Sequence record: DRR723986_8204
DNA: 34,958 nucleotides
Strand: one strand, 5' to 3'
Part shown: positions 10,919 to 28,864 of the stretch, one piece after another
Numbering within the stretch: position 1 is the stretch's first letter
How the letters are laid out: every line of letters begins with the position of its first letter
Program-made: the position numbers and the translations under genes
The notes under the pieces: model-generated
What the model was told of the DNA's origin: nothing
The model's database searches: none
Seen by the model: only the letters and a program-made list of their open reading frames with translations

Positions 10919-10920
10919 GG

Positions 10921-11925: not shown

Positions 11926-11949
11926 GAGTAATTCGCCTTGATTCAAATG

Positions 11950-11977
11950 AACAAGGGGGCAAAGTTGCCCCCTTGTT
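11950..11977 (-). terminator. Hairpin between pilS and pilV (terminator/attenuator)
   Basis: AACAAGGGGGCAA-AG-TTGCCCCCTTGTT is a perfect inverted repeat 18 bp after the pilS stop, with only a weak U tail on the minus strand. Confidence 0.75.
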
Positions 11978-11995
11978 GGACTTCATGAGATGGGA

Positions 11996-12550: not shown

Positions 12551-12628
12551 TTTTGATTCCTCTCCGAAGGGAAATTGTGTAGTACATGTTGGCCCAAGCA
12601 TTCCGTATATATACCAACAGACGAATTA

Positions 12629-12656
12629 ATTGTAGATCAAATGCATGCTGTGTCAA
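12629..12656 (-). promoter_or_regulatory. Sigma70-type promoter for pilS
   Basis: Minus strand TTGACA-N16-TACAAT in the pilR-pilS intergenic region. Confidence 0.7.
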
Positions 12657-12665
12657 GCACTTATT

Positions 12666-13817
12666 TCAACGCATGCGTTGCATTCTTTTCACAGGGTCCA
12701 GTTCCTCGGTCATGCTTTGGCTGATCGACAACTGACCCACGTACAAAAACACCACTACAGCCGCAGCAACACTCAGTAACACGGCATTCAAACCCTTGGC
12801 CGTGTTGCCAATTTCATTGCGAATGTCTTCACCACCCTCAGTACCCAACTGAATCAAAATTTTGTCGAATTGCGGGTTGTTGCGAATGGTGGTGGCCAGG
12901 CGCGCCAGCAGCTTCGGGCTCATTAGCCCTTTGCTGAATGCGGGAATGTAATCGGTGGGGGCCACGTTCAGGTGGTTCATGATCTTTTTCAAATGCCAGC
13001 GCATCCACGGGTCGGCATTGCGTTTCAGCGTGTCCAGCGCCGAAGACAAAGTGGCTCCGCTTTTCAAGAGCACTGCGAGCGAGGTGACCAGCAAACTGAC
13101 TTGAAAGTCGCGGTAAATGGACAGCGGCAACAGAAAGGGCGCCACCGGAAACAGCAGGAAGCCCCAGCCTTGCGGCACTTGCTCTAATTGGCTTCGCAAA
13201 TTGCCTTTCCAGCGGGGCAGTGCGTAAGTGAATGCCGCGATAGCACCAATAACACTGGCCACAATCAATCCGCCATGAGAGGCAACAATTTCCGAGACGA
13301 TTCGCACCGACATATTGAACGGTGTCCACACTTCAGGCGGTGCCACTTTCACAATAATTGGAATGGATTGCGTGGCCAGCACGTAGCTGAAACCAGCCAC
13401 ACCGGGTATCAACACCATGGGCGGGAAAATGGCTTTCCAAATGACGCTCTTTGCTTCTTTCTGCGATTTGATCGCCGCAGCCAAAGCGCGAAGGGTGCCT
13501 GGTTTGTCTTTGGCCTCATCCACGGCGGCCAGCATCATGCGGTCATTCTGCGGCATCACTGTGCCCAGAATCTGGCTGATCAAAAAGTCGTCGCCCAAAC
13601 TCAGTTTGCGAACCATCAGCTTCAAGGCCGCTTCCCGGCTGCTGTTGCGTGTTCGCTTGTGGCGGGCAATTTTCAGTTCTTCTTCCAGAAAGGTTTTGAA
13701 CTGTTCTTTGTTTTCAATCGATTTGGCCAGCTGTTCGTAAAATGCTTCGCGCTTGCCGCGAAAGTCCATCAGGTTGATGGCATTGAAAAGGTTGGTGAGT
13801 TTCTTTTTGAAGGTCAT
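12666..13817 (-). CDS. pilR: Type IVb pilus inner-membrane platform protein (PilR/GspF family)
   Basis: REAFYEQLA N-terminal motif, LAVLLKSGATLSSAL, TM pattern of the T2SS-F family; follows the ATPase. Confidence 0.85.
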   Translation of the reverse strand: MTFKKKLTNLFNAINLMDFRGKREAFYEQLAKSIENKEQFKTFLEEELKIARHKRTRNSSREAALKLMVRKLSLGDDFLISQILGTVMPQNDRMMLAAVDEAKDKPGTLRALAAAIKSQKEAKSVIWKAIFPPMVLIPGVAGFSYVLATQSIPIIVKVAPPEVWTPFNMSVRIVSEIVASHGGLIVASVIGAIAAFTYALPRWKGNLRSQLEQVPQGWGFLLFPVAPFLLPLSIYRDFQVSLLVTSLAVLLKSGATLSSALDTLKRNADPWMRWHLKKIMNHLNVAPTDYIPAFSKGLMSPKLLARLATTIRNNPQFDKILIQLGTEGGEDIRNEIGNTAKGLNAVLLSVAAAVVVFLYVGQLSISQSMTEELDPVKRMQRMR

Positions 13818-13819
13818 GT

Positions 13820-15550
13820 TCAGGTGTAAGCCGCTGTTTCGGCGCGGTCTGCGTCGTTCATGATTTCGAAACGGTCAAAGCTGTCGAAGCGTTCGCAATG
13901 GCGCGGGTCCACGTCGCCTTGCAGTGCCTTGAACAGTGTGTGTTCAAACACGGTTTTTCCATCCATGTTTTCGGATTTGAAGTTGCCATCCGATTTCGAC
14001 CGGTAGTACATCATGGCTTCATAGTCTTTGCCCTGGCGAATCAGGTTCAGCCACTTCCGGTCGGGGGTCAAAATTTCAGCAACCACACTCAGGCCAGCAG
14101 TACCGCGGTGTTTGCACTTGGGGCAACCGCCTTGTTTCTTGAAGTAGAACAAATCACGTTCAAGGCCATAGCGGTTTTCCAGTGTGTCGAGGATTTCAAG
14201 CACATGCTCCGAGTCGGGCATGCCCTGCTGATACAAGCGGCCACCAATTTTGCAGTGTGGGCACAGCTTGGGCACCAAGGCCTGGTACACCAGCAGTGTC
14301 AAAATATTCGGGTTGGTCAGCACATCGCGACTCATGCCGATTTCTTCGTTGGTCAGGCGCGGCACAATACCGGATATCAAATGCGCGTGCACCGTGCCGC
14401 AAGCCATGTGGCCTGTTTCAACAATTTGCTGTGCCGAGATCGCAGTGGCCGGGTCACGAATTTCACCCATCAACACGCAGCCCGGGTCGGCTCGCATCAG
14501 GCCAGCTACCACTTCGGCGTATTTGGCGGCGGAGCCTTTTCGGTCCAGCAAATCGCGCTGAATCGGAATTTGATGAACGCCTCGCAGTGGATATTCCACC
14601 GGGTCTTCAATGGAGTAAAACGCGTCTGTACCATTGCCAGGGTGCGTTTCAATGAAAGTTTTGAGTGTGGTGGTTTTACCGGAGCCGGTTACCCCCGCAA
14701 AAATAATGGTGCCGGAGGGCGTGTTGGATGCACTCTTTAACTGCTTCATGTGCGAAGGGGCATAACCCAGCTGCTCATAGCTGAGGGTAGGGGCATCAAT
14801 GTCCACATACAACAAGCGGCACACCACTTTGATCCCGGCCCAGCCACGCATCGACTGATAACGCATGGCCACGCGTTTGCCACCCACCTCGCGGGCGGCG
14901 ATCATGCAGTACAGGTTTTCACCCACCGAGAATTGGCTGTTGCTGTTGGAGCCCTTGCCCGACGCGTTGTTGTACGCCCAGGCCACGGCACGCTCTGCTT
15001 GCAGCGGGGTGTATACGCCGCCTTGCTGATCGCGCAGAAATTCAAGTTCACCATCCACGCGCAGTTTCACTTCGGCAATGTTGTTGACCACTTGCACGTG
15101 AATGTCGGTTGCGCGCTCCTGCACAGCCAAAGCCACCCAGGATTCAAAAATCTCCTTGGCTTTGGACTGCGCCACTGCAGGGTCTTCTTCGCCCTCTGTG
15201 CTGTCGATTTTGGTTCGGGAATTCTCGATCAGGTGCTCGATGACGCCACCACCACAACCAATTTCGGGTCGCTCAAACGTGAATTTTTCGGCAATCAGTT
15301 TGCCGCGCAGGTGGGAGATGAAAGGACGAATCTGCGCGAGTTTTTCCGCATCGTACAGAATGATGGCGCGCTTCACGCCTGTTTCAATGGCACACACATG
15401 TTTTTCAACAGCGGCTGGCAGCTTGAGCAAAGCCCCTGCACTGCCATCGGTCAACACGCGTGAAAACGCGGGCAGTTCACTGAGCTTTTCAACCTTCAGT
15501 GACTTCTCCGCCTGCGTGGCCAACACATTCAGTGCCGGGTCTCTTTTCAT
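13820..15550 (-). CDS. pilQ: Type IVb pilus assembly ATPase (PilQ/GspE family)
   Basis: ATDIH, Walker A GVTGSGKTT, Asp box IEDPVE, MRADP..LMGEIRD, TGH..GTVHA, and CxxC...CxxC Zn site. Confidence 0.93.
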   Translation of the reverse strand: MKRDPALNVLATQAEKSLKVEKLSELPAFSRVLTDGSAGALLKLPAAVEKHVCAIETGVKRAIILYDAEKLAQIRPFISHLRGKLIAEKFTFERPEIGCGGGVIEHLIENSRTKIDSTEGEEDPAVAQSKAKEIFESWVALAVQERATDIHVQVVNNIAEVKLRVDGELEFLRDQQGGVYTPLQAERAVAWAYNNASGKGSNSNSQFSVGENLYCMIAAREVGGKRVAMRYQSMRGWAGIKVVCRLLYVDIDAPTLSYEQLGYAPSHMKQLKSASNTPSGTIIFAGVTGSGKTTTLKTFIETHPGNGTDAFYSIEDPVEYPLRGVHQIPIQRDLLDRKGSAAKYAEVVAGLMRADPGCVLMGEIRDPATAISAQQIVETGHMACGTVHAHLISGIVPRLTNEEIGMSRDVLTNPNILTLLVYQALVPKLCPHCKIGGRLYQQGMPDSEHVLEILDTLENRYGLERDLFYFKKQGGCPKCKHRGTAGLSVVAEILTPDRKWLNLIRQGKDYEAMMYYRSKSDGNFKSENMDGKTVFEHTLFKALQGDVDPRHCERFDSFDRFEIMNDADRAETAAYT

Positions 15551-15552
15551 GA

Positions 15553-16128
15553 TCAAAACCTCACTTGCGCACCCACGGAGACATGCTGCGTGTTGCCGTT
15601 GCTTGCGACCAATTCAAGTCCGTTGTGGGTGATTCTCTTGATGTTGAATTTGCCAAGTTGCTCACCTTCACGAAGTGTGCGAACGTTCCGACCTGCTGTT
15701 TGAATTTCAGCGGTCATTGCACCGGTTGTGCCATACACGCCCAGCAAGGTGTTGGCAGACATGGCTGGTGCGGCTTTGCTGTTGGTTCGAGAGGGCGTCA
15801 CTGTGGCAACTGGTTTGGTTTCAGGCGCCGGTGCAGGTGACACCGCCTGGGGTTTGCTCACCGTGCTGGTGCTCACACTGCCGCCAATTTTCAGTGCAGC
15901 TTGCAATTCTTCCCGCATGGCTTGCTCTTCTTGCAGCCTTTGTATTTCTGCCAGCGTTTTGATGTTCAACGGCACCGAAACCCCGTTGAGCTTGATGTTT
16001 TCAACAGGTGTGACTGCTGTTTTGTTCTCAGCCTTCGCGTCCACTTTGGGTGGTGCGTTGTCCTGCGCATGCAGGTTGTTCAAAGCCAAGGCCGCAAGCA
16101 GGCCGCCCAGAAAATGGTTAATACGCAT
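15553..16128 (-). CDS. pilP: Type IVb pilus biogenesis protein PilP-like
   Basis: Signal peptide, coiled coil, Pro/Thr/Ser linker and C-terminal LLGVYG...AEI beta domain; sits between pilO and pilQ. Confidence 0.7.
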   Translation of the reverse strand: MRINHFLGGLLAALALNNLHAQDNAPPKVDAKAENKTAVTPVENIKLNGVSVPLNIKTLAEIQRLQEEQAMREELQAALKIGGSVSTSTVSKPQAVSPAPAPETKPVATVTPSRTNSKAAPAMSANTLLGVYGTTGAMTAEIQTAGRNVRTLREGEQLGKFNIKRITHNGLELVASNGNTQHVSVGAQVRF

Positions 16129-17407
16129 ACAGTGCTCCCTTCAATGTCACCATCACGGCGGCATCCAGGTTTTTGGGTTCAATCTTCATGGAAATCTGGT
16201 TCCAGTAAATTCCGGAAGGGTATCGGTCCAGAAAGTCTTTGATCAGGGTCAGACTGCCCGTGACTTCAGTGGCATGCCGGTTCACCGAGACGTTGGGTGG
16301 AATGCTCTTGAAGCCTGTGGGCCAGGTTTGGCCTTGTGTGTCGACCTTGAACTGAATGCCCGCTTTTTGCCAGGCTTGTTGTTCCAGATAAAGCAGTTCG
16401 CTGGCTTCCTGTTTCTTGGGCAAATCCTGCAGTTGTTGAATGCCCCGGGTGGCCATGTCGTAGGAGAAGGAGAACTTCAGTTTGTTGACATCTTTGGGGT
16501 CCGGGCTGCTTTGCTGGTTGCTTAAAAAGCTGACCAGCTCTTGGGTGTAGCCACCCTGCGATTGCCACTGGCTGGTGCACTTGCCCAAGTTGCATTGAAT
16601 GCCTTCCAGCAACCAGCCGCGCGCCATGAATGGCTGCTCGCTCAACAGGTTCAGCATGTCGATTACATCGGCATTGGCCAGGCCCACATTGCGCTGGTCG
16701 GTCGCCAGCTTTTTCAAATACTGCGGGGTTTGTATGCTCGACTGCGCCTGCTTCATGCGCGCTTCACGTGCGCTGGCTTCAAGGTATTCGTTACCGCCGT
16801 ACACGCCACCTGCCAGCAATAGCACCACGGCAAGCATGGCAGAGGCCTTGATCAAATCGGTGGGTAAACCCACCAGCGCATGTTTGTTGTTAAAGCTGCC
16901 CAAGCGGGCTGCAATGTCCAGGGGCAGGGCGCTGGGGAAGAGTTCAGGCGCATTGGTGTACACATGGTATTCCGAACTTTCGATCGATCCATTCGTGTAG
17001 GTGTTCACGGTGCTGACCACCTCGGCGTCACTGCCGATCATGTCCATGGTGGGGGCACCCTGTTCAATCACCACCAGGGCCATTTGGCCTTTCTTGTTTC
17101 CTTCCTCTATGCGAATGGCATAAATGACATGTTCCTGCTCATTCTGTGTGGCCAGCATGGCAGCCAGGCTGTACACCTGCCCCGTGCGTTCCTCATCCGA
17201 GATATCCGGGTCAAAGTTGTAAAGCCCCAGATATTCGTTTTGCTGGCCCTTGAGCAAAATGTGCTTGGTGGCATCAATTCGGTCAGCATACTCGCGAATG
17301 TCGGCAATGCGTTTGCTGTAGCCTGAGCGCGCCAGTGGTTGCCAGTTCAAGCCGGCAATGTAGGCTTTCTTCCCCAGCTGATGAACGACTGCAGACTGCT
17401 CTGCCAT
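16118..17407 (-). CDS. pilO: Pilin accessory protein PilO (PilO2 family)
   Basis: AGLNWQPL and YSLAA motifs, central TM, GWLLEGIQC..C; sits after the secretin. Confidence 0.8.
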   Translation of the reverse strand: MAEQSAVVHQLGKKAYIAGLNWQPLARSGYSKRIADIREYADRIDATKHILLKGQQNEYLGLYNFDPDISDEERTGQVYSLAAMLATQNEQEHVIYAIRIEEGNKKGQMALVVIEQGAPTMDMIGSDAEVVSTVNTYTNGSIESSEYHVYTNAPELFPSALPLDIAARLGSFNNKHALVGLPTDLIKASAMLAVVLLLAGGVYGGNEYLEASAREARMKQAQSSIQTPQYLKKLATDQRNVGLANADVIDMLNLLSEQPFMARGWLLEGIQCNLGKCTSQWQSQGGYTQELVSFLSNQQSSPDPKDVNKLKFSFSYDMATRGIQQLQDLPKKQEASELLYLEQQAWQKAGIQFKVDTQGQTWPTGFKSIPPNVSVNRHATEVTGSLTLIKDFLDRYPSGIYWNQISMKIEPKNLDAAVMVTLKGALYAY

Positions 17408-17422
17408 GGCGAGCCCCGTGCC

Positions 17423-19186
17423 TTACAGCACCACCGCGCGAACCAGAACGATGAAGTTCTCTCGCATGGTGGAAAGGTTGCGCGAACCACCGGCCAGCAG
17501 TGGGGCTTGTTCAGTCAGCTTGCGCTCGGTAAAGCCGGACACATCGCGTGACAGGCCCGTGATGGCCATCACTTCGCCAGGGCGGAGTGCAATGGTGTAT
17601 TGATCAGAAATGCTGCTGGTGTTGGGTGTTTGAACCCGTTGCAGGGTCTCGCCCGTGCCTGTGGTAATTTCAAGCAGGCTGGTCAGGTCAGACAGGCTGA
17701 TGCCCATTTTCAGCATGATGGTGTTGTTGTCCAGAATAAACGGCATGGCCGCGAACTGGTCGCCGGTCGTGATTTCATCGGTGGTCAAGCCGGGTACACC
17801 TGTGCCGCCGCCCAAAGCACCGGAGGAGGCGGGTTTCGTTTCTGACAAATAACCCGTGGTGGTCAGCCGTGCCTTGCGTGCCCACTGCCTGTTCAAAGCC
17901 ACCAGAGAAATGGGGCGATGTTGAACATTGTCGCCAATTTCATTGAGAGCCTGCACAATGGCCGAGCTGGCACCAAAACGCTGATTGGTCGGGTTGTTGG
18001 GTGGGTTTTGGCCGGGAATGAAACCTTGCAAGGCCTCAGGAATGGTCAGGGCAATCAAACCTGCCTCAGGAGCCACCAGTGATTCGGGCGACAACACGCC
18101 AATGCCGTAGCGCTGGGACAGGCTTCTGAAAAACACATCCCAGTTCACGCCCTGTTGGTCATCTTTCTTGGACATCACCGAGTAAATGTCGAGCTGCACA
18201 TGCACCTGTTTCAACATGTTTGCATTCTCGGTGCGGATGAGATCGCGCACTTGGGTTTGCATGTCACGGCTTGTTTTCACCATGACACGGCCGGTGCCCT
18301 CGGCCACAATCACTTCAGAGCCAGGCACCGAGGCAACCATGCGGTTGATCACTTCCAGTATGCTGGCCTGGCCGTCAATTTTCCCTTTTTCCGACACGCT
18401 CAAGTTCGAATTGCTTTGCACTTCATTGCCTCGCACGCGGCCTTGCGTACCGCTGCTCATGGCGTATTCATAGCCATTGGGAAAAGAGGCCAGTTCGTAC
18501 ATGGCGGTGGTGTAGCGCATGATGACAATGGAGTTGTCGCGGTACTCCCAGGACAAACCCAGTTTGTCAGTGGTGGTGTTCAGAAAATCAATCAGTGTGC
18601 CGTCCCAGTTCATGGCCACGGAACCTACAGTGGTTCGGGGTGCCAGGGCCACACTGTCGACTGCGACTGGCGTGGATGCCGGTGGTGGTGCTTCGGCTGG
18701 CGCGCTCACCGGCGGCAACTGGCGTGCGCCGCGGCGGGGTTCGGCGCTGACCGGGGCGTTGAACACATCTTGTTGAATCCGAACGGGAATACCGACCATT
18801 TGGGTCAAGCGGGCTGCCACCGTATTCAAATCCACGGGGCGGCCTTTGTCCGCAAAATTCATTTTGTAGGTTTCATGAAAAATCGCTGGCAACTTGTCGT
18901 CGTCATTCACATGCACGAACGTGCCGCCAATCCAGCTTTTGCTGGCGCGTTTCAGCACCTTGGCATTTTGTTGTTGCCTGGCTTGTTCTTCGGCGTATTG
19001 TCGACCACCGCGAAATGAACCATTGGTTGGCAAGCTGGTGTTGACCTGTTCCACTTTGCGCAAGCCATTGTCATTGTCAGCCTCTACTTCAGCCCTGATT
19101 TGCGGGCCTGTGCAGGCTGTTGTACCAAGGCTTAGCATGGCCACAATTGCCGCGCATATCCATGTTCTGTTGGGTGGTGTCTTCAT
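17423..19186 (-). CDS. pilN: Type IVb pilus secretin (PilN/BfpB family lipoprotein)
   Basis: Lipoprotein-like signal (TTAC); WDGTLIDFLN...GLSW, QVHVQLDIYSV, GVNWD, and the C-terminal secretin region. Confidence 0.88.
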   Translation of the reverse strand: MKTPPNRTWICAAIVAMLSLGTTACTGPQIRAEVEADNDNGLRKVEQVNTSLPTNGSFRGGRQYAEEQARQQQNAKVLKRASKSWIGGTFVHVNDDDKLPAIFHETYKMNFADKGRPVDLNTVAARLTQMVGIPVRIQQDVFNAPVSAEPRRGARQLPPVSAPAEAPPPASTPVAVDSVALAPRTTVGSVAMNWDGTLIDFLNTTTDKLGLSWEYRDNSIVIMRYTTAMYELASFPNGYEYAMSSGTQGRVRGNEVQSNSNLSVSEKGKIDGQASILEVINRMVASVPGSEVIVAEGTGRVMVKTSRDMQTQVRDLIRTENANMLKQVHVQLDIYSVMSKKDDQQGVNWDVFFRSLSQRYGIGVLSPESLVAPEAGLIALTIPEALQGFIPGQNPPNNPTNQRFGASSAIVQALNEIGDNVQHRPISLVALNRQWARKARLTTTGYLSETKPASSGALGGGTGVPGLTTDEITTGDQFAAMPFILDNNTIMLKMGISLSDLTSLLEITTGTGETLQRVQTPNTSSISDQYTIALRPGEVMAITGLSRDVSGFTERKLTEQAPLLAGGSRNLSTMRENFIVLVRAVVL

Positions 19187-19189
19187 GTT

Positions 19190-19897
19190 TTATCGGCACT
19201 CTTCTTTTTGATCGCCCAAGCGGGTAATGCGAAGCAATGGCGGCTCATTGTTGTAAACGCAGGCTTCCAAGGGGTACTCGCTGTTCTTGATTCCCGGTGT
19301 TTCCAGAACCTGCTCGACTGCATGTTCAAAGGTGCCTGAGAAGGTGGTGCCCGCTGCAATCATCACGTAGCGGTCGGCGTCCCAGCGGAATGTGTAACCC
19401 GCTTCTTTGGCCCATCGGCGAATCGCTTTGTCCAGTCGGCCATCCTCTACTCGCAACTCCCATTGAATGGCACGCGGTGTCACCACCAGTCTTGCACTGT
19501 CCTGTTTCACTGGCAGCGCCGCCAATTGCTCGGCTTCCCGAATGACTTTGGGTGGCAGGTCCACAATGAACACATCGGAGGAGGGGGCTTGCATGGCCAG
19601 CTGTATATTGCTGGTTTTGTTGAGCGCAGCACTGGGGGATTTGGGCTCAAGGCTGGGTTGCGCAACCACGGTAAAGCTTCGTGCCTGCGGCCCAGGGTCG
19701 GGTGCGTCGTTCCTGGCCAGTTCTACATTGCGTGACAGCAACTCATCGGCAAAGTACGGGAGTGCTTCTTCATGTTTCGCGATGACGGCCGTGTAGGCAG
19801 GCGCCTGCATGGCAACAGTGGCACTTGTCTCCCCACTCGTTTCCCCGGTTGTGTTCCATGCCATCAGCACAATGGCAAGACCAAGAGCAAATTCCAT
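19190..19897 (-). CDS. pilL: PilL/TcpQ-domain protein
   Basis: C-terminal W....GRLDKAIRRWAKEAGYTFRWD...FSGTFEHAVEQV TcpQ-domain pattern; first gene of the cluster. Confidence 0.78.
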   Translation of the reverse strand: MEFALGLAIVLMAWNTTGETSGETSATVAMQAPAYTAVIAKHEEALPYFADELLSRNVELARNDAPDPGPQARSFTVVAQPSLEPKSPSAALNKTSNIQLAMQAPSSDVFIVDLPPKVIREAEQLAALPVKQDSARLVVTPRAIQWELRVEDGRLDKAIRRWAKEAGYTFRWDADRYVMIAAGTTFSGTFEHAVEQVLETPGIKNSEYPLEACVYNNEPPLLRITRLGDQKEECR

Positions 19898-20044
19898 ATT
19901 CGTTCTACCTTCTTCGTATGGATCGGTTTTCAGCGAGTTTGCAAATTTTAATAATTCGAATATACATCAATATACGAAATAATTTCTTTTGCAGCAATCC
20001 CAAAAATTATTCTGCTGCGTCAGGGGGTTGTAGTCAGTGACAAA

Positions 20045-20521
20045 TCAATCTTGATAGATTGCATCAAGCCATTGATTGCCTTCATGCGGGCTGTAATGAA
20101 CCAGCAGGTAAGCCGCTGTCTCAAGCACTGCAAGACTGCAGGCCTGGGTTTCGTCGAAGGCTTCCTGATTGATCGCGTCGTATTCGTAAATACACACTTT
20201 CAACAGTTCGCCGATCAGGCGAGGCGTGGATTCGATGGTTTTGATCTTTGGCCGCAACTCGGAATGGGCTTTCATCAGACCACGGAAGTAGTGCCAGGTT
20301 GTGCCTTCTGTCTCAGCAAGGCCTCGAAGGATGAACGGCAGACTAAGGTTCAGAAGGCCATTGTCCTCAATGTGCGCAGCCAATTCGCTGTATGCACAGT
20401 CGCATGGATCGACCGGATGGTGTGCCCTGAAATAAGCAATATTGTTTGCGATCGATGTGCCCGAGGAGAGGCTTGCAAGCGTTGCTGCCGTACTCTCGAA
20501 TGGCTTTGTTTGTGCGACCAT
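20045..20521 (-). CDS. Hypothetical protein
   Basis: 158-aa ORF with plausible composition, co-oriented with the pil cluster; no recognised motif. Confidence 0.55.
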   Translation of the reverse strand: MVAQTKPFESTAATLASLSSGTSIANNIAYFRAHHPVDPCDCAYSELAAHIEDNGLLNLSLPFILRGLAETEGTTWHYFRGLMKAHSELRPKIKTIESTPRLIGELLKVCIYEYDAINQEAFDETQACSLAVLETAAYLLVHYSPHEGNQWLDAIYQD

Positions 20522-20896
20522 ATTTTTTATTGTTCACTCGTTGAGTTAATGAATACTTGCCCGAATTTATTGTGCGAACAAGTGTTGACTGAACAAATGT
20601 TTGGAAAAAATCACATTTTTTGTCATTTCATGTAACAGTACCTACAAAAATTGCGACAAATTCTAAGTATCCACATGAGGTGATCATCAAAGATCCATGA
20701 TTTATAAAGAGATTAATTTCCTTTTATATTTCATTCTCGTGATAAATTTGTTGCAAATTCCTGTAGTCCTCTCTGAGCTTTTTTCGGTCTTTTGCCGTTT
20801 CTAGATGTATTCAGAACCCTCCCACCCAGATTCCTCTCAATGCTCAACGAAATCAATCGCATCAAAGGGTGGGGGTGGGGGGTAAAAAGGAGGGGA

Positions 20897-21987: not shown

Positions 21988-24105
21988 TTGCAAACCCATC
22001 GCCGCGCCTGCCATTTGTGTGAAGCCATTTGTGGCTTGAAGATCGAGGTAGACAACAATCAGATTGTTTCAATCAAGGGCGATGAGCAAGACCCCTTTAG
22101 CCGTGGGCACATTTGCCCCAAGGCAGTGGCTCTGAAGGATATTCAGGAAGACCCCGACCGTTTAAAGCAACCGGTTAAAAAAGTGAACGGGCAATGGGTA
22201 GAAACCACCTGGGAAGACGCTATTGAGTTGGCCTGTGAAGGGTTGTTTCAGGTGCAGCAAAAATATGGTGCCAATGCCGTGGGTGTTTATCAGGGCAACC
22301 CGAATGTGCACAACTGGGGTTTGATGACCCACAGTGCCAATTTTCTGGGGTTGCTGAAAACACGCAACCGTTTTTCAGCCACCTCGGTTGATCAGTTGCC
22401 CATGCAGCTGTTGGGTTACTGGATGTTTGGGCACCAACTGCTCATCACCATCCCGGACATTGACCACACCCAATATTTCCTGATGCTGGGGGCCAATCCG
22501 ATCGCTTCGAACGGTAGCTTGATGACTGTGCCCGATGTGGCCAAACGCATCAAGGCCCTCCAGGCGCGCGGCGGAAAGCTGATCGTGATTGATCCTCGAA
22601 AGACTGAAACCGCCGAGGTGGCTGATGCGCATCATTTCATCAGGCCTGCCAGCGATGCGGCTTTTGTGTTCGCACTTATCAACACCATTGTGGAGGAGGG
22701 CCTGACCCGCATGGATCGCCTGGCCCACCACAGTGAGGGTTTGTTTGCGGCTTTGGGCGCGATTTCAAAGGTGACGCCTGAAGTGGCGCAGGCCGAGTGT
22801 GGTATTGACGCGGACACCATTCGCCAAATTGCGCGTGATTTTGCGAATGCCGGAAAGGCGGTGGCGTATGGCCGCATGGGCGCCTGTACCCAACGCCATG
22901 GCACCTTGGCGCAGTGGGGTATTCAGTTGCTGAACTTTGTGACGGGCAACACCGACCGGGTTGGAGGAAGCCTGGTGGCCAACCCTGCGCTAGACCTGAT
23001 TGCCGCGCCCAACAGCAAGCCCGGCAGTTATGGCCGCTGGCACAGCCGGGTCAGCCAAAAGCCTGAGGCGCTGGGTGAGTTTCCCAGTGCCATCATGGCT
23101 GAAGAAATTCAAACCGGGGGCGAGGGACAAATCAAGGCCATGGTGATCGTTGCGGGCAACCCTGTGTTGTCTACACCCAATGGCCAGCAGCTTGACAAGG
23201 CTTTGGCGGGGCTTGAGTTCATGGTGTCCGTGGACCTGTACATCAATGAAACGAATCGCCATGCGGATGTGATTTTGCCCACCACATCGCCTCTTGAGCA
23301 TGATCACTACGATTTGATTTTCAATATTTTCGGTGTGCGTAACCAGGCCAAGTACAGCGCGGCCACCTTGCCAAAACCACAAGGAAGCCTGGACGACTGG
23401 GAACTGATGGACAAACTGGCCGCCTGCTACAGCGAAAAGATTGGCAAACCTGCTCGGCCTTCCATGCCGCCTCAAATGATTCTCGACATGGGTTTGCAAA
23501 TGGGGCCCTATGGCATGGCCAGTGAGCAAAAGCTGAGTCTGGACAAATTAAAACAGCACCCCGAAGGCGTTGACTTGGGGCCGCTTCGCCCCAGTTTTCC
23601 AGACCGCTTGCAAACCGCTGACAAAAAAATTCAGCTGGCACCTGCGGAAGTGCTACAGGCCGCAGCAAATTATGTGGCCGACTTGCTGAATGACGACAAG
23701 CGGGCAGGTGCTGAAATGATGTTGATTGGGAGGCGCCACATTCGCAGCAACAATTCCTGGATGCACAACTCCGAGCGCCTGGTCAAAGGCAAGAACCGCT
23801 GCACCGCCATGGTCAACCCTGCGGATGCTGCGCGTTTGAATTTGCAGGACGGCTACAACGTGCGTGTGCGCAGCCGAGTGGGTGAAATTACATTGCCTGT
23901 AGAAATTTCAAATGACGTAATGCCCAGCGTGGTGAGTATTCCGCACGGTTGGGGCCACGACAAATCGGGGGTACGTTTGCAAGTGGCAGCCGCCCACGCG
24001 GGGGTTAGTTGCAATGATTTGACCGATGAGCAATGGCTGGATGAGCCCAGTGGGAACGCCGCAGTCAACGGCGTGCCCGTAACACTCATTCCTGTGGCGC
24101 AATAA
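21988..24105 (+). CDS. Molybdopterin (bis-MGD) oxidoreductase with an N-terminal 4Fe-4S site
   Basis: CHLCEAICG...GHICPKA, GANPIASNGS, ADVILP, and C-terminal RSNNSWMHN / VVSIPHGWGH; TTG start after GGAG; no Tat signal. Confidence 0.92.
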   Translation: MQTHRRACHLCEAICGLKIEVDNNQIVSIKGDEQDPFSRGHICPKAVALKDIQEDPDRLKQPVKKVNGQWVETTWEDAIELACEGLFQVQQKYGANAVGVYQGNPNVHNWGLMTHSANFLGLLKTRNRFSATSVDQLPMQLLGYWMFGHQLLITIPDIDHTQYFLMLGANPIASNGSLMTVPDVAKRIKALQARGGKLIVIDPRKTETAEVADAHHFIRPASDAAFVFALINTIVEEGLTRMDRLAHHSEGLFAALGAISKVTPEVAQAECGIDADTIRQIARDFANAGKAVAYGRMGACTQRHGTLAQWGIQLLNFVTGNTDRVGGSLVANPALDLIAAPNSKPGSYGRWHSRVSQKPEALGEFPSAIMAEEIQTGGEGQIKAMVIVAGNPVLSTPNGQQLDKALAGLEFMVSVDLYINETNRHADVILPTTSPLEHDHYDLIFNIFGVRNQAKYSAATLPKPQGSLDDWELMDKLAACYSEKIGKPARPSMPPQMILDMGLQMGPYGMASEQKLSLDKLKQHPEGVDLGPLRPSFPDRLQTADKKIQLAPAEVLQAAANYVADLLNDDKRAGAEMMLIGRRHIRSNNSWMHNSERLVKGKNRCTAMVNPADAARLNLQDGYNVRVRSRVGEITLPVEISNDVMPSVVSIPHGWGHDKSGVRLQVAAAHAGVSCNDLTDEQWLDEPSGNAAVNGVPVTLIPVAQ

Positions 24106-24124
24106 GTGCCGGGCTGACTGTCAA

Positions 24125-24874
24125 TCAGCACGCCTTTTTTTCCCACACGGTCATTTCCGCAATGCTGTGCTGGTATTTGCGGGCCGTTTCCCGAATCACA
24201 AACGGAACATTCAATGGCTCGCGAACCAGATTGAAATGGGGTGCAAGCACTTCTTGCATGCCTTCAAGCATGGTTTTGGGTTTGCCATGTTGTTCAATGC
24301 CGCCAATCCAGTTTTCTTTGGGTGTGTACTCGGTCAACAGCGTGTAGGGCGAGCTGATCACCAGCAAGCCGCCGGGCACAATGCGCTTTGGCATGTCGTT
24401 TAAGAACCCGGTGGGGTTGTTCACCCGGTCAATCAGGTTGCCTGCAAATATCAGGTCATAACCCGTGTGTTCCGCGCCCAGCTTGCAGGCGTCGCCCTGC
24501 GAAAATTCAACACGCTGGCTGCACTCGCTGTAATTGAAATTAGCAAGTGACACTTGCATGGCCCTGCCCAAATCACCCTCATCGTGCAAGAAGTAATTCA
24601 GCGTGTTGCCCTTTTGCAAGGCTTGGGTGGCGTCGATGAAACGTGCGGAAAGATCAACGCCCACGGCCGTATCAAAGCCCAAAGCCAGCTCGAAGGTACT
24701 TCGGCCAACGGCGCAGCCCAGGTCGAGTGCCTTGCGGCGTGGCCGATTGCCCATGAATTCCAGGCAAAGTTGAGCGCAGCGCACTGGGTAATTGGGAACA
24801 TCAAAATAGTCGACGCCATAGTGAAAGGCCAGGTACTGGTTTAATAGCTCGTCGGTTTCGTAAGGATTGGTCAT
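24125..24874 (-). CDS. SAM-dependent methyltransferase, OvoA C-terminal/OvsM type (putative mercapto/seleno-histidine N-methyltransferase)
   Basis: NPYETDELLNQYLAFHYG, ALDLGCAVGRSTFELA, QGDAC, NLIDR, SSPYT.L and VPFVIRETARKYQH all match the OvoA C-terminal methyltransferase pattern. Confidence 0.85.
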   Translation of the reverse strand: MTNPYETDELLNQYLAFHYGVDYFDVPNYPVRCAQLCLEFMGNRPRRKALDLGCAVGRSTFELALGFDTAVGVDLSARFIDATQALQKGNTLNYFLHDEGDLGRAMQVSLANFNYSECSQRVEFSQGDACKLGAEHTGYDLIFAGNLIDRVNNPTGFLNDMPKRIVPGGLLVISSPYTLLTEYTPKENWIGGIEQHGKPKTMLEGMQEVLAPHFNLVREPLNVPFVIRETARKYQHSIAEMTVWEKKAC

Positions 24875-24880
24875 AAAGCC

Positions 24881-26176
24881 TTATTGGGCACAGGTTCTGA
24901 AGCCGACGAATACATCGTTTCGGTCGGGCGTGTAGGCTTGGCGATAAGTGCCGCGAATGAGTATGGAAGAGGTTGCACAGGAGCCACCGCGCACCACTTT
25001 GTGGTCTCCGAATTGCAGGGTGGACATGAAGGGGTACATGTCCATGGTGAATCCGCTGTAAGGGAAAAACAGACTGTCGGTCCATTCCCAAACGGTGCCG
25101 ATCATTTGCCGGCATCCAAACGGGCTGTCTCCTTCGGGCAGGGCAGTCACCGGCAGCCTCGCAAGATGTGTGCTGTCCATGTCCACCCGGTGGCTTTCCA
25201 TGGTGTTGCCCCATGGAAACTTGTTGAAGGTGCCGTGTTCTCGATTGCCCAAGGCTGCCACTTCCCATTCAAACTCGGAAGGTAAGCGTCGCCCGGCAAA
25301 CTTGCAGTAGGCTTGTGCCTCCCAATAACTCACGTGTTTGACAGGCAGTTCGGCCTGAACAGGAAGCCATTGGTCGAAATGGCGCTCCAGCCAGATGCCG
25401 TTTTCCTCTTTCCAGAACAAGGGGTGTCTTGCTCTGTTGCTGTTGCGCCATTTCAGGCCCGCCATGCTCCAATACTGGTCGTTTTCATAGCCACCCGCCT
25501 GAATGAAAGTCAGAAACTCGGCATTGCTGACCAGTGTTCTGGAAATTTTGAAGGTTTTCATGTCAACAGTGAATTCGGGTTTTTCATTGTCGAAGCAGAA
25601 ATCTTCAGTCGCGAAATTCGCCGACTGCGAAGGCATGCCGATGCGGTACCGGCCCGCGGGTACTTCCACATCCTTGGAGTGAATGAGGTTGGTGTTTCTT
25701 GTGTCTGTGTGTTGCAACGAAGAGGGCGGCGGCGCATAGCCCAGGCTTTGGCGCGCCCACACCATCGACTCAATGTGCATGTTGAGGTGAAAAATGGCGT
25801 ACTTGTACAGGTACAAATCACTGTCGGTCAGTGGTTTGGTTTCAATTCGCTGTTTCACCTTGTTGAAGGTGTCGTCAAAGTAGCGGAGGGTGTCCGGTTT
25901 GTCCGGGAATAGCCCCTCGTGCCAGCGGTCCTCGTGAGCCAGTTCAAACGAGTCCCAGATATCGTCAAGCGCGGGGTTGTACGAGGAGGCTTTGTCCAGG
26001 TTCTGCAAAATAAACCGCTCGAAGAAAAAAGCGGCGTGCCCAACCTCCCAAATAGGCGGATTAATGCCCGGCAAATAGGGCACTTTGGTTTGCTGTGCAC
26101 TCAAGCTGTTGAGCAATTCAAGAACACGCTCACGGCTTTGTTGCAAAGAGGCGAGTAAGGATTGCTTGTTGTTCAT
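24881..26176 (-). CDS. Non-heme iron sulfoxide/selenoxide synthase (EgtB/SenA/OvsA family; DinB_2 + FGE-sulfatase domains)
   Basis: NPPIWEVGH and HLNMHIE three-His facial triad; FDNEKP, VSYWEAQAYCKFAGRRLPSEFEWE, GTVWEWT, VRGGS and GFRT FGE-like motifs. Confidence 0.88.
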   Translation of the reverse strand: MNNKQSLLASLQQSRERVLELLNSLSAQQTKVPYLPGINPPIWEVGHAAFFFERFILQNLDKASSYNPALDDIWDSFELAHEDRWHEGLFPDKPDTLRYFDDTFNKVKQRIETKPLTDSDLYLYKYAIFHLNMHIESMVWARQSLGYAPPPSSLQHTDTRNTNLIHSKDVEVPAGRYRIGMPSQSANFATEDFCFDNEKPEFTVDMKTFKISRTLVSNAEFLTFIQAGGYENDQYWSMAGLKWRNSNRARHPLFWKEENGIWLERHFDQWLPVQAELPVKHVSYWEAQAYCKFAGRRLPSEFEWEVAALGNREHGTFNKFPWGNTMESHRVDMDSTHLARLPVTALPEGDSPFGCRQMIGTVWEWTDSLFFPYSGFTMDMYPFMSTLQFGDHKVVRGGSCATSSILIRGTYRQAYTPDRNDVFVGFRTCAQ

Positions 26177-26220
26177 CGTGGTGGTACTACTAACGGATTA
26201 CAAACAATTATAGGCCACCC

Positions 26221-26754
26221 ATGTTCATGAAATCGATACTACGCACCTTGACTGTCGCATCCACCGCATTGTTGATCGCAAGCGGCAGTGCCTATGCGGA
26301 TAAACCTGAAAAAGGCAACGGCAACCAGGGTAAAAACAAGGAAAGAGGAGAACAACGGGAGCACAAGGAAAACCGCAAAGGTGGTGGCAGCGAGAAGGGC
26401 AGCCGTTTCGACGGCCGGGATTCACGTCAAGACGGTGTATCTGTGTCCTTCAATTTTGGTAGCTCTGAAACCCGAATCGTGCGCGATTATTACGGTGGCC
26501 AGGTTGCCAAGGGCAAATGCCCGCCCGGATTGGCCAAGAAGGGCAACGGTTGCCAGCCCCCGGGGCAGGCCAAACAGTGGCAAAAAGGCCGAGCCTTGGG
26601 CAGCGATGTTCGCTATTACGACATTCCCAATGAGTTGCGCATTCGCCTGCCCGCACCACCTTTGAACCACAAATATGTTCAGTTGGGCACTGATCTGTTG
26701 TTGATCGCAGTAGGAACAGCCATCGTCGTGGATGCGGTTGACGGGATTTTCTGA
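26221..26754 (+). CDS. Secreted RcnB-like protein (CPPGLAKK family)
   Basis: Signal peptide, low-complexity charged region, CPPGLAKKGNGCQPPGQAK and LPAPP..HKYV..G.DLLL. Confidence 0.75.
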   Translation: MFMKSILRTLTVASTALLIASGSAYADKPEKGNGNQGKNKERGEQREHKENRKGGGSEKGSRFDGRDSRQDGVSVSFNFGSSETRIVRDYYGGQVAKGKCPPGLAKKGNGCQPPGQAKQWQKGRALGSDVRYYDIPNELRIRLPAPPLNHKYVQLGTDLLLIAVGTAIVVDAVDGIF

Positions 26755-26759
26755 TCCAG

Positions 26760-26795
26760 GACGAATCATCACGCCGGTGATTCGTCATTTATTCT
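26760..26795 (+). terminator. Probable intrinsic terminator
   Basis: GACGAATCA-N9-TGATTCGTC stem followed by ATTTATTCT, just after the stop at 26754. Confidence 0.55.
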
Positions 26796-26835
26796 TGCGC
26801 CAAGTGGAACAGTGAATTGCTGATCCATTTGCTTA

Positions 26836-26858
26836 TCTAGTTGCTAACAACAACTAGA
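26836..26858. promoter_or_regulatory. Palindromic operator candidate
   Basis: TCTAGTTG-N7-CAACTAGA perfect inverted repeat about 30 bp upstream of the hydrolase start. Confidence 0.55.
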
Positions 26859-26889
26859 CTGGCACCGACACTATTAATTGGGTGCCTCC

Positions 26890-27747
26890 ATGACAAACAA
26901 GATTGAAGTCTCGATTCCAGCCGTGGGGCAACCTTTGGCTGGAACATTTTTTCCCGCATCAAATGGCAACACTGACAAACCGTTGCTGATTTGCCCCGCA
27001 ACAGGGATTACCCAGAAATTTTATTTTCCGTTTGCCCGATGGTTGGCCCATCAGGGATTTTCTGTATTGGTGTTTGATTATCGAGGCATCGGAAAATCTT
27101 TGCAGGAGTCGCATGTCAAGCATTGCGAGGTGAAAAAGCAGGACTGGGGCTTGTATGACATGCCTGCAGCCCTGGATTTTCTGCTTGAACTCACTGGGCA
27201 GAACGGCGCGTACCTGGTCGGTCACAGCGCGGGTGGCCAACTGTTCGGTTTGATGCATAACCATGCCAAAGTGCGGGGCGTACTGGCGGTGGCTGCTTCT
27301 TCCGGGCATGTGAAAAACATTCGCAAAGACAAACGCAACGCTGCCAAGTTCATGCTGCGATGGGTGATCCCGATCAGCTCTGCCGTGTTGGGATATGTAC
27401 CCGCCAAGCGTTTGGGATGGGGTGAGAATTTACCGAAGGGGGTTGGCCTGCAATGGGCCAAATGGTGTTCCAGCCCTGGGTATGTGGAGAATGAATTTGG
27501 TGATGGTGTGCAGCAACACTGGTTTGAACAGTTCAAATCGCCAATTACTTTTGTGCATGCCAGTGATGACGAAATCGCAACCCTACCGAATGTTGAAGAC
27601 ATCATGCGCTTGTTCACCAAAGCCAGCAAGAAACGGCTTGAAATCAAACCCGAGACATTCAAACTTGGCAAAGTGGGGCACATTGATATTTTCAGGGAGC
27701 GGTGCAACAGCATTTGGCCACAAATTTTGGCAGAGTTGACTCCTTAG
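26890..27747 (+). CDS. Alpha/beta hydrolase (predicted, COG4757-like)
   Basis: ATG...FY..FA.WLA..G, FDYRGIG, nucleophile GHSAGGQ, DDEIA, GHIDIF. Confidence 0.85.
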   Translation: MTNKIEVSIPAVGQPLAGTFFPASNGNTDKPLLICPATGITQKFYFPFARWLAHQGFSVLVFDYRGIGKSLQESHVKHCEVKKQDWGLYDMPAALDFLLELTGQNGAYLVGHSAGGQLFGLMHNHAKVRGVLAVAASSGHVKNIRKDKRNAAKFMLRWVIPISSAVLGYVPAKRLGWGENLPKGVGLQWAKWCSSPGYVENEFGDGVQQHWFEQFKSPITFVHASDDEIATLPNVEDIMRLFTKASKKRLEIKPETFKLGKVGHIDIFRERCNSIWPQILAELTP

Positions 27748-27785
27748 GCTAAGATTAGCTGATCGAATTTCTGAGTACAAAACGC

Positions 27786-28277
27786 ATGAGGTTTTTCACA
27801 AATCATCCGGTCTTCAGATGCTGGCTGGTCATTTTTTGCATTGCCTTTTCAGCAAATACATTTGCCCGCGACATTGAGCCCAAGCCCATGCATTACGAAT
27901 TGCCAGACTGGTTCAAGCAAACTTTTCTTGAAATTCCAGCGGATATTCAAGATGCTCAAACCCGTGGAAAAAAGCTGCTTATTTTCTTTCACCTGGATGA
28001 CTGCCCGTACTGTGCTTATTTGCTTCAAGAGAACTTCTCGCAGGGCGCAAACCGCGAAAAAATCGAAAGTAAATTTGATGTGATCGCGATTAATGTACGC
28101 GGTGACTTGCCTGTGAACTGGATCGATGGAACGGTCTATTCTGAAAAACAGTTGGCTAGAAAGCTGGGTGTGTTTGCGACCCCTGCGGTACTCGTGATGG
28201 GACCCAAGCCCGAAGTGAGTAAAAAAATTATGGGTTACAAAAAGCCCGCAGTTTTTATGGAATTGTTGGGTTTTTAG
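27786..28277 (+). CDS. Periplasmic thioredoxin-fold protein (SoxW-like)
   Basis: Signal peptide, PDWFKQTFL, CPYC, SEKQLARKLGVFATP, GYKKP. Confidence 0.8.
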   Translation: MRFFTNHPVFRCWLVIFCIAFSANTFARDIEPKPMHYELPDWFKQTFLEIPADIQDAQTRGKKLLIFFHLDDCPYCAYLLQENFSQGANREKIESKFDVIAINVRGDLPVNWIDGTVYSEKQLARKLGVFATPAVLVMGPKPEVSKKIMGYKKPAVFMELLGF

Positions 28278-28864
28278 GAAACAGCGGATATGTGGAACCC
28301 AAATTGGTAGGCGCTCTCCAGCCATTTCTCACGAGTGCTCGCTTTCGAGTTTTTTACTGGGCCAAAGCTGGTAATTTCCACTGGTTTGATTCCACAGAAT
28401 TCCAGAATGGTCCGTTTCATTTGGTTGTGCCCGGTCATGCGATACACCAGCCGGTAGTACCAGGGTGGTGTGTCCATGGTTGCGATCAGGTGTGCAGTTC
28501 GTTGCTTTAAAAGGCCATCGACCATCAATGCGTCTTTCTTAAACTTGAATGCAAATCCGGGCAGGAATATTCGATCAAAGAAGCCTTTAAGAATGGCCGG
28601 AATGGAACCCCACCAAATTGGATAAACAAACACAAGGTGCTCAGCCCAGGCAATCGATTCTTGTGCAGCAACAAGGTCTGGTTCAAGCGGCTGAATGGTG
28701 TTGTAACCATCGCGCAGTATTGGATCAAAATCCAGTTGTCCAAGGCTGAGCAAGCGAACATCTCGACCTGCTGCCTGCGCTCCACTTTGGTAGGCCTCTG
28801 CGATGGCACCGCACAAGCTGGCCTCAGCTGGGTGACCAAGAATAATCAAGATGCGTTGGCGCAT
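28274..28864 (-). CDS. Flavodoxin-fold NAD(P)H-dependent (quinone) oxidoreductase
   Basis: ILGHP..SLCGA, FDP.L, YPIWWGSIPAILKGFFDR and TMDTP.WYY. Confidence 0.9.
   Translation of the reverse strand: MRQRILIILGHPAEASLCGAIAEAYQSGAQAAGRDVRLLSLGQLDFDPILRDGYNTIQPLEPDLVAAQESIAWAEHLVFVYPIWWGSIPAILKGFFDRIFLPGFAFKFKKDALMVDGLLKQRTAHLIATMDTPPWYYRLVYRMTGHNQMKRTILEFCGIKPVEITSFGPVKNSKASTREKWLESAYQFGFHISAVS

Follow-up and report, generated by a model that had tools for sequence, protein, structure and literature searches.

A putative ovsA-ovsM gene pair for ovoselenol biosynthesis in Limnobacter, located apart from selenosugar genes

The stretch of DNA analyzed in this study (hereafter the window; 34,958 bases) was 98.0 and 97.4% identical at the DNA level to a contig of a Limnobacter sp. 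MAG over 7.5 and 6.0 kb, respectively, and is assigned by sequence to the chromosome of a Limnobacter (Burkholderiaceae) host. As stated in the initial annotation, it contains a pair of minus-strand ORFs that are only 6 bp apart (Table 1). This short spacer is consistent with co-transcription and coupled translation of the two genes. The divergent intergenic region upstream of the first gene is probably its promoter region. A consensus scan of positions 23900-26500 that required both hexamers found no promoter-like site there. Scanning of the same interval for terminator-like sites gave 6, compared to the 3.7 expected, of which the only one near gene ends was on the plus strand, after the convergent molybdopterin oxidoreductase gene. 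An ovsM homolog followed ovsA in 18 of 27 OvsA-type loci, while adjacent ovsM was lost or missing in three relatives (L005, L011, and L017).

Table 1. Features of the ovsA-ovsM locus and its immediate flanks
Feature	Position	Strand	Basis
ovsA, non-heme-iron selenoxide synthase (NHISS, OvsA subfamily), 431 aa	24881..26176	-	ORF (ATG), domains, PDB scores, motif, tree
Spacer GGCTTT, 6 bp, from ovsA stop (TAA) to ovsM start (ATG)	24875..24880	-	sequence read
ovsM, predicted SAM-dependent 5-selenohistidine N-pi-methyltransferase, 249 aa	24125..24874	-	ORF (ATG), TIGR04345, PDB scores
Divergent intergenic region, 44 bp, upstream of ovsA	26177..26220	-	sequence read
TATAAT hexamer, ~30 nt before ovsA ATG	26207-26212	-	sequence read
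Molybdopterin oxidoreductase gene, convergent with the ovsA-ovsM pair	21988-24105		
CigR/RcnB-like gene, divergent from ovsA	26221-26754		

A functional link of ovsA-ovsM to the molybdopterin oxidoreductase or CigR/RcnB-like gene was considered and rejected, because their synteny was limited to Limnobacter-group loci and was absent from Marinobacter, gammaproteobacterial and PVC loci. Region 8657-20896 of the window was also considered as an inserted island. Although it is missing from one relative (L001), eight further Limnobacter-group loci contain it, and the island was rejected.

The 431-aa oxidase possesses a DinB_2 domain (PF12867, residues 11-121, E 4.4e-09) and an FGE-sulfatase domain (PF03781, residues 170-428, E 3.5e-44), both with E-values far beyond chance, which is the NHISS architecture of an N-terminal DinB and a C-terminal FGE-type domain. 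Among solved structures, OvsA (PDB 8u41/8u42) matched residues 1-430 with 565.7 bits (E 8e-169), and the other matches were SenA (196 bits), EgtB-I (193 bits), EgtB-II (~123 bits), and OvoA (102.6 bits). For calibration, a Marinobacter homolog scored 636 bits with OvsA and 183 bits with SenA, a Verrucomicrobiales homolog 482 and 181 bits, respectively, and a SenA-motif protein with adjoining senB and selD 325 bits with SenA and 194 bits with OvsA. The oxidase did not pass the NCBIfam models TIGR04344 (ovoA_Nterm; 153 bits, cutoff 400) or TIGR03440 (EgtB; 298 bits, cutoff 360), and no OvsA-named NCBIfam model was among its matches at E<=0.01.

The two motifs reported in the initial annotation, NPPIWEVGH (residues 39-47) and HLNMHIE (residues 130-136), were present in the translation. 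Of the motifs that it had given for known enzymes, those of SenA agreed with 8k5i (NPPLWELGH and HEAMH), but HEQQH for EgtB did not agree with 4x8b, which has HEHQH. The published composite motif of OvsA is xNEH--HRHxHYMQAYR, while that of SenA ends with HYYN(F/Y)(F/Y)R (Kayrouz et al., bioRxiv 10.1101/2024.04.10.588772). Thirteen of the 17 published positions were mapped, the other four being x or a gap, and all 13 positions read in the window oxidase (N39, E44, H47, H81, R84, H130, H134, Y381, M384, Q413, A414, Y415, and R419) followed the OvsA pattern. The iron triad of H47, H130, and H134 and the catalytic Y381 align with their OvsA counterparts (Tyr398 in Halomonas utahensis OvsA for the latter). 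M384, Q413, and A414 correspond to the histidine-binding Met401, Gln430, and Ala431 of OvsA, where SenA has Tyr, Asn, and Phe; the SenA hercynine pocket of Tyr/Asn/Phe(Tyr) was not found in the window oxidase. In the alignment, the latter reads YPFM...YRQAY, as does wild-type OvsA, whereas SenA reads RDY...YRNFF and, in the engineered OvsA-YNF (8ux5), Y and NF replace the M and QA of the window oxidase and wild-type OvsA. Gln405 of OvsA (in MSTLQ) was also conserved. According to the preprint, the three residues, Tyr/Asn/Phe versus Met/Gln/Ala, switch both substrate and regiochemistry (bioRxiv 10.1101/2024.04.10.588772). Moreover, the positions facing the thiol/selenol donor are N, E, H, and R, matching the published patterns of OvsA and SenA; the corresponding residues are given as R, Y, and D for OvoA and as S and D or S and H for EgtB (bioRxiv 10.1101/2024.04.10.588772).

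A quick tree search, carried out without OvoA, EgtB-I or characterized sequences, grouped the window oxidase with 25 complete OvsA-pattern loci (SH-aLRT 99). This group was sister to a single SenA-pattern row on a long branch and was split (100) from 51 EgtB-II-pattern rows. The phylogeny that had been proposed as a check thus placed the oxidase in the OvsA-motif clade. By its scores against solved structures, its composite motif and its position in the tree, the 431-aa oxidase is classified as OvsA.

The 249-aa protein passed the TIGR04345 ovoA_Cterm model (306.1 bits, cutoff 170), and its PDB matches were OvsM 9bxh (267.5 bits), OvoA 8khq (259.5 bits), and OvoM 9bxl (222.6 bits). The alignment with OvsM 9bxh spans residues 2-246 and includes the SAM-binding stretch LDLGCAVGRS. 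Given that it passed TIGR04345 and aligned to residues 465-706 of 8khq, the protein corresponds to the C-terminal methyltransferase of OvoA encoded as an independent polypeptide, as the initial annotation had recognized. Thus, different from the fused OvoA, the oxidase and methyltransferase modules are separate ORFs. Because the margin between OvsM and OvoA is small, its score does not distinguish a preference for selenium from one for sulfur. With OvsM as its best match, it is predicted to be an OvsM-type N-pi-methyltransferase encoded beside ovsA.

No SenB, SelD, EgtD or C-S lyase was found among the window ORFs scanned with NCBIfam, which comprised 34 of the 57 ORFs that are 150 aa or longer and one ORF of 133 aa, the other 23 overlapping longer ORFs in other frames. 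In six-frame tblastn searches covering the whole window, two SenB proteins, a SelD and a PatB-type lyase, all taken from related loci, returned nothing at E<=1e-5, nor did a third SenB query at E<=1e-10. These results agree with the absence of senB, selD, egtD and lyase genes noted previously. Similarly, senB or selD was near ovsA in none of the 18 Limnobacter-group loci (up to 10 kb on each side, less at contig ends). It was previously reported that ovsA/ovsM can lie at a chromosomal site apart from senB/senC, that the four genes ovsA, ovsM, senB, and senC consistently co-occur and that the pathways for all four thio/selenoimidazoles, including ovothiol, are encoded by Limnobacter thiooxidans (Kayrouz et al., bioRxiv 10.1101/2024.04.10.588772). 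This literature on the genus suggests that senB and senC are located elsewhere in the source genome.

The gene pair is thus very probably ovsA and ovsM, the pathway-specific genes for ovoselenol on a Limnobacter chromosome whose selenosugar genes are elsewhere. The end product would be ovoselenol, N-pi-methyl-5-selenohistidine. OvsA is predicted to attach selenium from a selenosugar to histidine, at C5 of its imidazole ring. Because the selenoxide product would shed its sugar spontaneously, no lyase would be needed. OvsM would then methylate the pi-nitrogen with SAM as donor. The selenosugar would be provided by the selenosugar synthase SenB and the selenophosphate synthetase SenC/SelD, whose genes are probably part of a selenoneine (sen) cluster elsewhere in the genome. 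In the preprint, the ovoselenol enzymes were reconstituted in vitro and an ovsA mutant of Marinobacter vinifirmus lost ovoselenol; H. utahensis OvsA is the one enzyme for which C5 selenylation of histidine with SeGlcNAc is demonstrated (bioRxiv 10.1101/2024.04.10.588772). Of the two interpretations offered initially, the scores, motif, tree and OvsM match back an ovoselenol pathway with dispersed donor genes, while the use of another donor or a split ovothiol route gained no positive support.

Automatic annotation would be expected to name the oxidase a selenoneine synthase, SenA, acting on hercynine at C2, with the methyltransferase being unrelated. With the NCBIfam SenA equivalog model NF041186, which has a cutoff of 420 bits, the oxidase scored 436 bits, and NPPxWExGH and HxxMH are common to the oxidase and SenA 8k5i. 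However, NF041186 also gives 410-432 bits for other proteins with the OvsA motif, including those of Marinobacter, so that this model fails to separate the two subfamilies. The much lower PDB score with SenA than with OvsA, the replacement of the hercynine-binding residues by those that switch substrate and regiochemistry, the lack of egtD in the window and the N-pi-methyltransferase typical of ovs clusters 6 bp downstream further argue against SenA, which is extremely unlikely. If the pathway instead used sulfur, an OvsA-like enzyme with cysteine or a thiosugar and the free methyltransferase could form ovothiol A by a split route. Such a route would fit with the lack of selenium genes within 35 kb and with a methyltransferase whose similarity to the OvoA C-terminal domain nearly equals that to OvsM. 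It is very unlikely, however, as the donor-side residues fit SenA/OvsA rather than OvoA or EgtB, a cysteine route requires a C-S lyase that was not found in the window and the oxidase matches OvoA with a low score. Moreover, an ovothiol pathway is also reported for L. thiooxidans (bioRxiv 10.1101/2024.04.10.588772) and, therefore, a second ovothiol route is not needed.

The pair could also be orphaned or decaying, with senB/senC lost and the intact genes making nothing or using only imported selenosugar. The lack of nearby donor genes in the Limnobacter-group loci is in line with such a loss, as is the evolutionary lability of the locus suggested by the three relatives without adjacent ovsM. 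Against it, neither ORF is truncated and all of their catalytic and binding positions are preserved, OvsA is kept at 64–92% identity across named Limnobacter species, and it has been reported that the four genes consistently occur together and that one Limnobacter has all four pathways (bioRxiv 10.1101/2024.04.10.588772). We therefore consider it unlikely. Alternatively, in a genome without senB/senC, intact OvsA and OvsM might use a donor not made by SenB to form an N-methyl seleno- or thio-histidine. In a milder version, one senBC cassette, located in a selenoneine cluster, would feed both SenA and OvsA and, thus, a single selenosugar pool would be split between two selenoimidazoles. Taken jointly, these two versions have a very low probability. 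The results for the 18 Limnobacter-group loci are compatible with both; identical donor-side residues and the published statement on L. thiooxidans (bioRxiv 10.1101/2024.04.10.588772) oppose the stronger one.

The preferred assignment, ovsA-ovsM of a dispersed ovoselenol pathway, can be compared with known systems. Similar to H. utahensis OvsA (8U41/8U42), the window oxidase aligns over its full length with DinB and FGE-type domains, is followed by an ovsM gene and shares the iron triad, catalytic Tyr, Met/Gln/Ala pocket, Gln405 equivalent and N/E/H/R donor side. Different from the window pair, ovsA/ovsM of H. utahensis are reported to be clustered with senB/senC (bioRxiv 10.1101/2024.04.10.588772), and Halomonas OvsA has an insertion of ~14 residues near residue 245 that is missing from the window oxidase. 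Limnobacter is also a betaproteobacterium (NCBI taxonomy), whereas the OvsA family has been described as almost exclusively gammaproteobacterial (bioRxiv 10.1101/2024.04.10.588772). Similar to the window pair, ovsA-ovsM of M. vinifirmus are reported to lie chromosomally apart from senB/senC, and are functional there (bioRxiv 10.1101/2024.04.10.588772). The locus of a Marinobacter MAG (L020) likewise contains ovsA-ovsM, and senB is missing from the surrounding 10 kb. The identities of the Marinobacter MAG proteins were 55% for OvsA and 58% for OvsM, however, the flanking genes differ and the Limnobacter pair is known from sequence. OvsM 9BXH is the best PDB match of the window methyltransferase, with only a small lead over the OvoA C-terminal domain.

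SenA 8K5I belongs to the sister subfamily and shares the selenosugar-side residues and the NPPxWExGH and HxxMH motifs. It differs in score, in having Tyr/Asn/Phe rather than Met/Gln/Ala and in lacking window residues ~310-359; it is also reported to act on hercynine at C2 with EgtD, not an N-pi-methyltransferase, as its partner (bioRxiv 10.1101/2024.04.10.588772). OvoA 8KHQ shares the C5-of-histidine regiochemistry and a homologous methyltransferase module. Its oxidase domain, however, is distant, and it is a single polypeptide that uses cysteine as donor and requires a lyase.

Given that other bacteria are already known to carry ovsA/ovsM apart from their selenosugar genes, the gene pair is a real but ordinary, known ovoselenol core. 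The missing senB/selD, which the initial annotation had presented as the point of interest, is the arrangement already reported for M. vinifirmus (bioRxiv 10.1101/2024.04.10.588772). By the terms of that annotation, the pair counts as part of a known ovoselenol pathway with dispersed genes, the presence of senB/senC in the genome being taken from the literature on the genus. The same preprint already covers the enzyme family and its product, the free-standing methyltransferase, the location apart from senB/senC and the occurrence of the pathway in Limnobacter (bioRxiv 10.1101/2024.04.10.588772); it was the only literature found on Limnobacter together with selenoneine or 5-selenohistidine. As OvsA-type proteins reach or surpass the cutoff of the SenA model, ovsA genes are likely to be labelled selenoneine synthase. 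The Met/Gln/Ala triplet together with an adjoining OvoA-C-type methyltransferase provides a quick means to discriminate OvsA from SenA. Finally, Limnobacter, which is said to encode the pathways of all four thio/selenoimidazoles, would be well suited to investigating how a single supply of selenosugar is divided between selenoneine and ovoselenol.

As judged from sequence comparisons, the gene pair of the window is very probably ovsA-ovsM, the half of the known ovoselenol route that is specific to this pathway, with selenium supplied from elsewhere in the genome. The two-gene arrangement and both oxidase motifs described in the initial annotation were confirmed by the ORFs, the translation and a reading of the junction, where the TAA stop of ovsA is followed by six bases (GGCTTT) and then the ATG of ovsM. 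In the oxidase, NPPIWEVGH spans residues 39–47 and HLNMHIE residues 130–136. A divergent gene lies 44 bp upstream of ovsA; this spacer contains a TATAAT hexamer ~30 nt 5' of the ovsA ATG, although a two-hexamer promoter scan gave no hit. The stops of ovsM and the convergent gene are 19 bp apart.

Features of the window and of matched loci (L numbers) with their coordinates
Feature	Sequence	Coordinates	Strand	Remark
ovsA	window	24881-26176	-	ORF, 431 aa
ovsM	window	24125-24874	-	ORF, 249 aa
Molybdopterin oxidoreductase	window	21988-24105	+	705 aa, N-terminal Fe4S4 domain; convergent to ovsM
Redox-flavoured neighbourhood	window	26221-28864		Divergent CigR/RcnB-like secreted protein and downstream genes
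Type IVb-pilus-like gene block	window	8657-20896		12 kb
Intact OvsA-pattern gene without adjacent ovsM	L005	3190-6597 (region)		Limnobacter group
Intact OvsA-pattern gene without adjacent ovsM	L011	4695-7184 (region)		Limnobacter group
Intact OvsA-pattern gene without adjacent ovsM	L017	9992-12386 (region)		Limnobacter group
Extended cluster	L021	293-12136		Gammaproteobacterial MAG
Extended cluster	L023	41-12148		Gammaproteobacterial MAG

The oxidase contains DinB_2 and FGE-sulfatase domains. Among NCBIfam models, its scores were 436 bits for SenA (NF041186, cutoff 420), 298 bits for EgtB (TIGR03440, cutoff 360) and 153 bits for ovoA_Nterm (TIGR04344, cutoff 400), and no OvsA-named model was among the matches at E<=0.01. 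Because the SenA equivalog model gives OvsA-pattern proteins (that of the window and those of loci L019–L026) 410–436 bits, on both sides of its cutoff, some OvsA genes will be automatically named "selenoneine synthase SenA". Against PDB entries, the oxidase scored 565.7 bits with the selenoxide synthase OvsA of Halomonas utahensis (8u41/8u42; E 8e-169, residues 1–430), 195.8 bits with SenA (8k5i), 193.2 bits with EgtB-I (4x8b), 122.9 bits with EgtB-II (6o6l) and 102.6 bits with OvoA (8khq). These scores were calibrated with related proteins from matched loci: a Marinobacter MAG protein scored 636 bits with OvsA vs. 183 with SenA and a Verrucomicrobiales protein (L025) 482 vs. 181, whereas a protein with senB and selD on its flanks scored 325 with SenA vs. 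194 with OvsA.

According to the accessible text of Kayrouz et al. (bioRxiv 10.1101/2024.04.10.588772), a 17-position composite motif sorts NHISS enzymes: xNEH--HRHxHYMQAYR for OvsA and xNEH--HRHxHYYN(F/Y)(F/Y)R for SenA, with the motifs of EgtB-I and EgtB-II starting with xSDH and xSHH, respectively. Replacement of Met401/Gln430/Ala431 of OvsA by Tyr/Asn/Phe yielded a SenA-like enzyme by which hercynine was selenylated at C2 (same source). In a MAFFT alignment, the 13 mapped positions of the window oxidase were N E H H R H H Y M Q A Y R. In the printed alignments, it shares YPFMSTLQ and YRQAY with wild-type OvsA; where it has YPFM and YRQAY, the corresponding stretches are YPFY and YRNFY in the YNF variant (8ux5) and YRDY and YRNFF in SenA. 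The initial annotation had also considered a variant pathway with another sulfur or selenium donor. The donor-side residues N, E, H and R are those common to SenA and OvsA and differ from the OvoA/EgtB patterns, which argues against such a donor.

Of the 94 stretches matched in a search of genome contigs with OvsA, 84 passed confirmation and 80 were retained, which gave 79 loci. The top locus, L001, is on a Limnobacter sp. MAG contig; in the NCBI taxonomy, this betaproteobacterial genus belongs to the Burkholderiaceae. The OvsA of L001 was about 99.8–100% identical to that of the window, and the DNA identity was 98.0% across 7,531 bases and 97.4% across 5,972. The identities were 64–92% for L002–L018 (Limnobacter species or Burkholderiales MAGs), 55–58% for L020–L023 (Marinobacter or gammaproteobacterial MAGs) and 48–49% for L019 and L024–L026 (Verrucomicrobiales or Planctomycetota MAGs). 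All 25 complete proteins of L001–L026 had the full OvsA pattern, and the fragments L009 and L027 had it at the first seven positions; L057 had the SenA pattern and the remaining 51 loci an EgtB-II-like pattern. A quick maximum-likelihood tree, the kind of analysis proposed in the initial annotation, comprised 78 rows after the two fragments had been dropped; SenA was represented by a single long-branched row, and OvoA and EgtB-I by none. The window oxidase fell among 26 OvsA-pattern rows forming one group (SH-aLRT 99), which was sister to L057, the sole SenA row, and split from the 51 EgtB-II-like rows at 100.

The methyltransferase was indeed free-standing and of the OvoA C-terminal type, passing TIGR04345, the model of the N-methyltransferase domain at the OvoA C-terminus, at 306 bits (cutoff 170). 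Its fold family is certain. Its scores were 267.5 bits with OvsM (9bxh), 259.5 bits with OvoA's C-terminal domain (8khq, residues 465–706) and 222.6 bits with OvoM (9bxl), so that an OvsM or OvoA-type assignment is not decided by score alone.

As far as the accessible text describes it, the published pathway was reconstituted in vitro: OvsA yields 5-selenohistidine from histidine and SeGlcNAc, and OvsM catalyzes its SAM-dependent N-pi methylation; since the selenoxide loses its sugar spontaneously, no lyase is needed (Kayrouz et al.). Both H. utahensis and Marinobacter vinifirmus were found to contain ovoselenol, which was lost in an ovsA mutant, and 228 OvsA sequences were reported (Kayrouz et al.). 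The same paper, which defined ovoselenol, names the genus Limnobacter. A sen cluster elsewhere in the genome, with candidate senB/senC, would be the likeliest selenium source and, if so, would feed both SenA and OvsA. Consistent with the initial annotation, no SenB, SelD, EgtD or C-S lyase was found in NCBIfam scans of the window (which covered one ORF of 133 aa and 34 of the 57 that reach 150 aa or more, the other 23 overlapping longer ORFs in other frames). Its suggestion of an ovoselenol pathway with distant selenium-donor genes gained support from the scores, motif and tree, which mark the oxidase as an OvsA, and from OvsM being the methyltransferase's top PDB match; the absence of nearby senB/selD, which it had found remarkable, is a published arrangement and the rule in the Limnobacter loci inspected. 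Both genes were absent from the window and all 18 Limnobacter-group loci, several of whose flanks are <10 kb because the contigs end. In the flanking DNA examined, senB homologues were near ovsA in 5 of the 27 OvsA-type loci (L021, L023, L024, L025 and L026) and selD homologues in two (L023 and L026).

An ovsM homologue directly followed ovsA in 18 of 27 OvsA-type loci (tblastn). Among the nine others, L009 and L027 stop inside or just past ovsA, and genes other than ovsM come after ovsA in L005, L011 and L017: a molybdopterin oxidoreductase gene abutting ovsA as if by clean ovsM deletion, an Ahr gene, and a nitronate-monooxygenase/FabK-like gene (L. humi), respectively. In these three strains, ovsM may be located elsewhere, or the pathway may end at 5-selenohistidine. 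No ovsM was found in the flanking DNA examined of four PVC-group loci (L019 and L024–L026). As the OvsA family is described as almost exclusively gammaproteobacterial (Kayrouz et al., accessible text), the product in these four hosts may be unmethylated 5-selenohistidine or a different derivative. In L024–L026, senB is directly upstream of ovsA, with selD nearby in L026; in L019, a DUF4202 gene overlaps the ovsA stop. In the extended cluster of L021 and L023, ovsA-ovsM come after selD (present in L023, whereas the contig of L021 stops at senB), senB, a putative selenate ABC transporter (TIGR04553 binding protein, ATPase and permease), a PatB-family C-S lyase, a TauE/SafE exporter, a second class-I methyltransferase and an ArsP-type permease. 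This cluster suggests that selenium uptake, and perhaps further tailoring, is tied to ovoselenol.

The window pair is flanked by genes for a cytoplasmic-type molybdopterin oxidoreductase, the aldehyde reductase Ahr, a CigR/RcnB-like protein and an alpha/beta hydrolase. Among the loci compared, these genes are syntenic within the Limnobacter group only, and no reason was seen to link them to the pathway. The molybdopterin oxidoreductase scored under every NCBIfam equivalog cutoff (top, Fdh-alpha, 239 bits vs. 666); it adjoins ovsM in 13 Limnobacter-group loci (77–99.6% identity) and is absent from other OvsA hosts. Downstream of the CigR/RcnB-like gene are genes for the alpha/beta hydrolase, a thioredoxin-like protein with a signal-like N-terminus, an NAD(P)H oxidoreductase and a MerR-family regulator; no evidence links this redox-flavoured neighbourhood to ovsAM. 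The pilus-like block encodes a PilN-family secretin, a PilP-like protein, a GspE/PilB-type ATPase, a MepK-like L,D-endopeptidase and several family-less ORFs. It is missing from the nearly identical contig L001, where window position 8656 is joined to 20897. Because eight other Limnobacter-group loci carry the block, or at least the part of it next to Ahr, within the reach of the examined DNA, a loss or mis-assembly in the L001 MAG is more probable than an insertion in the window.
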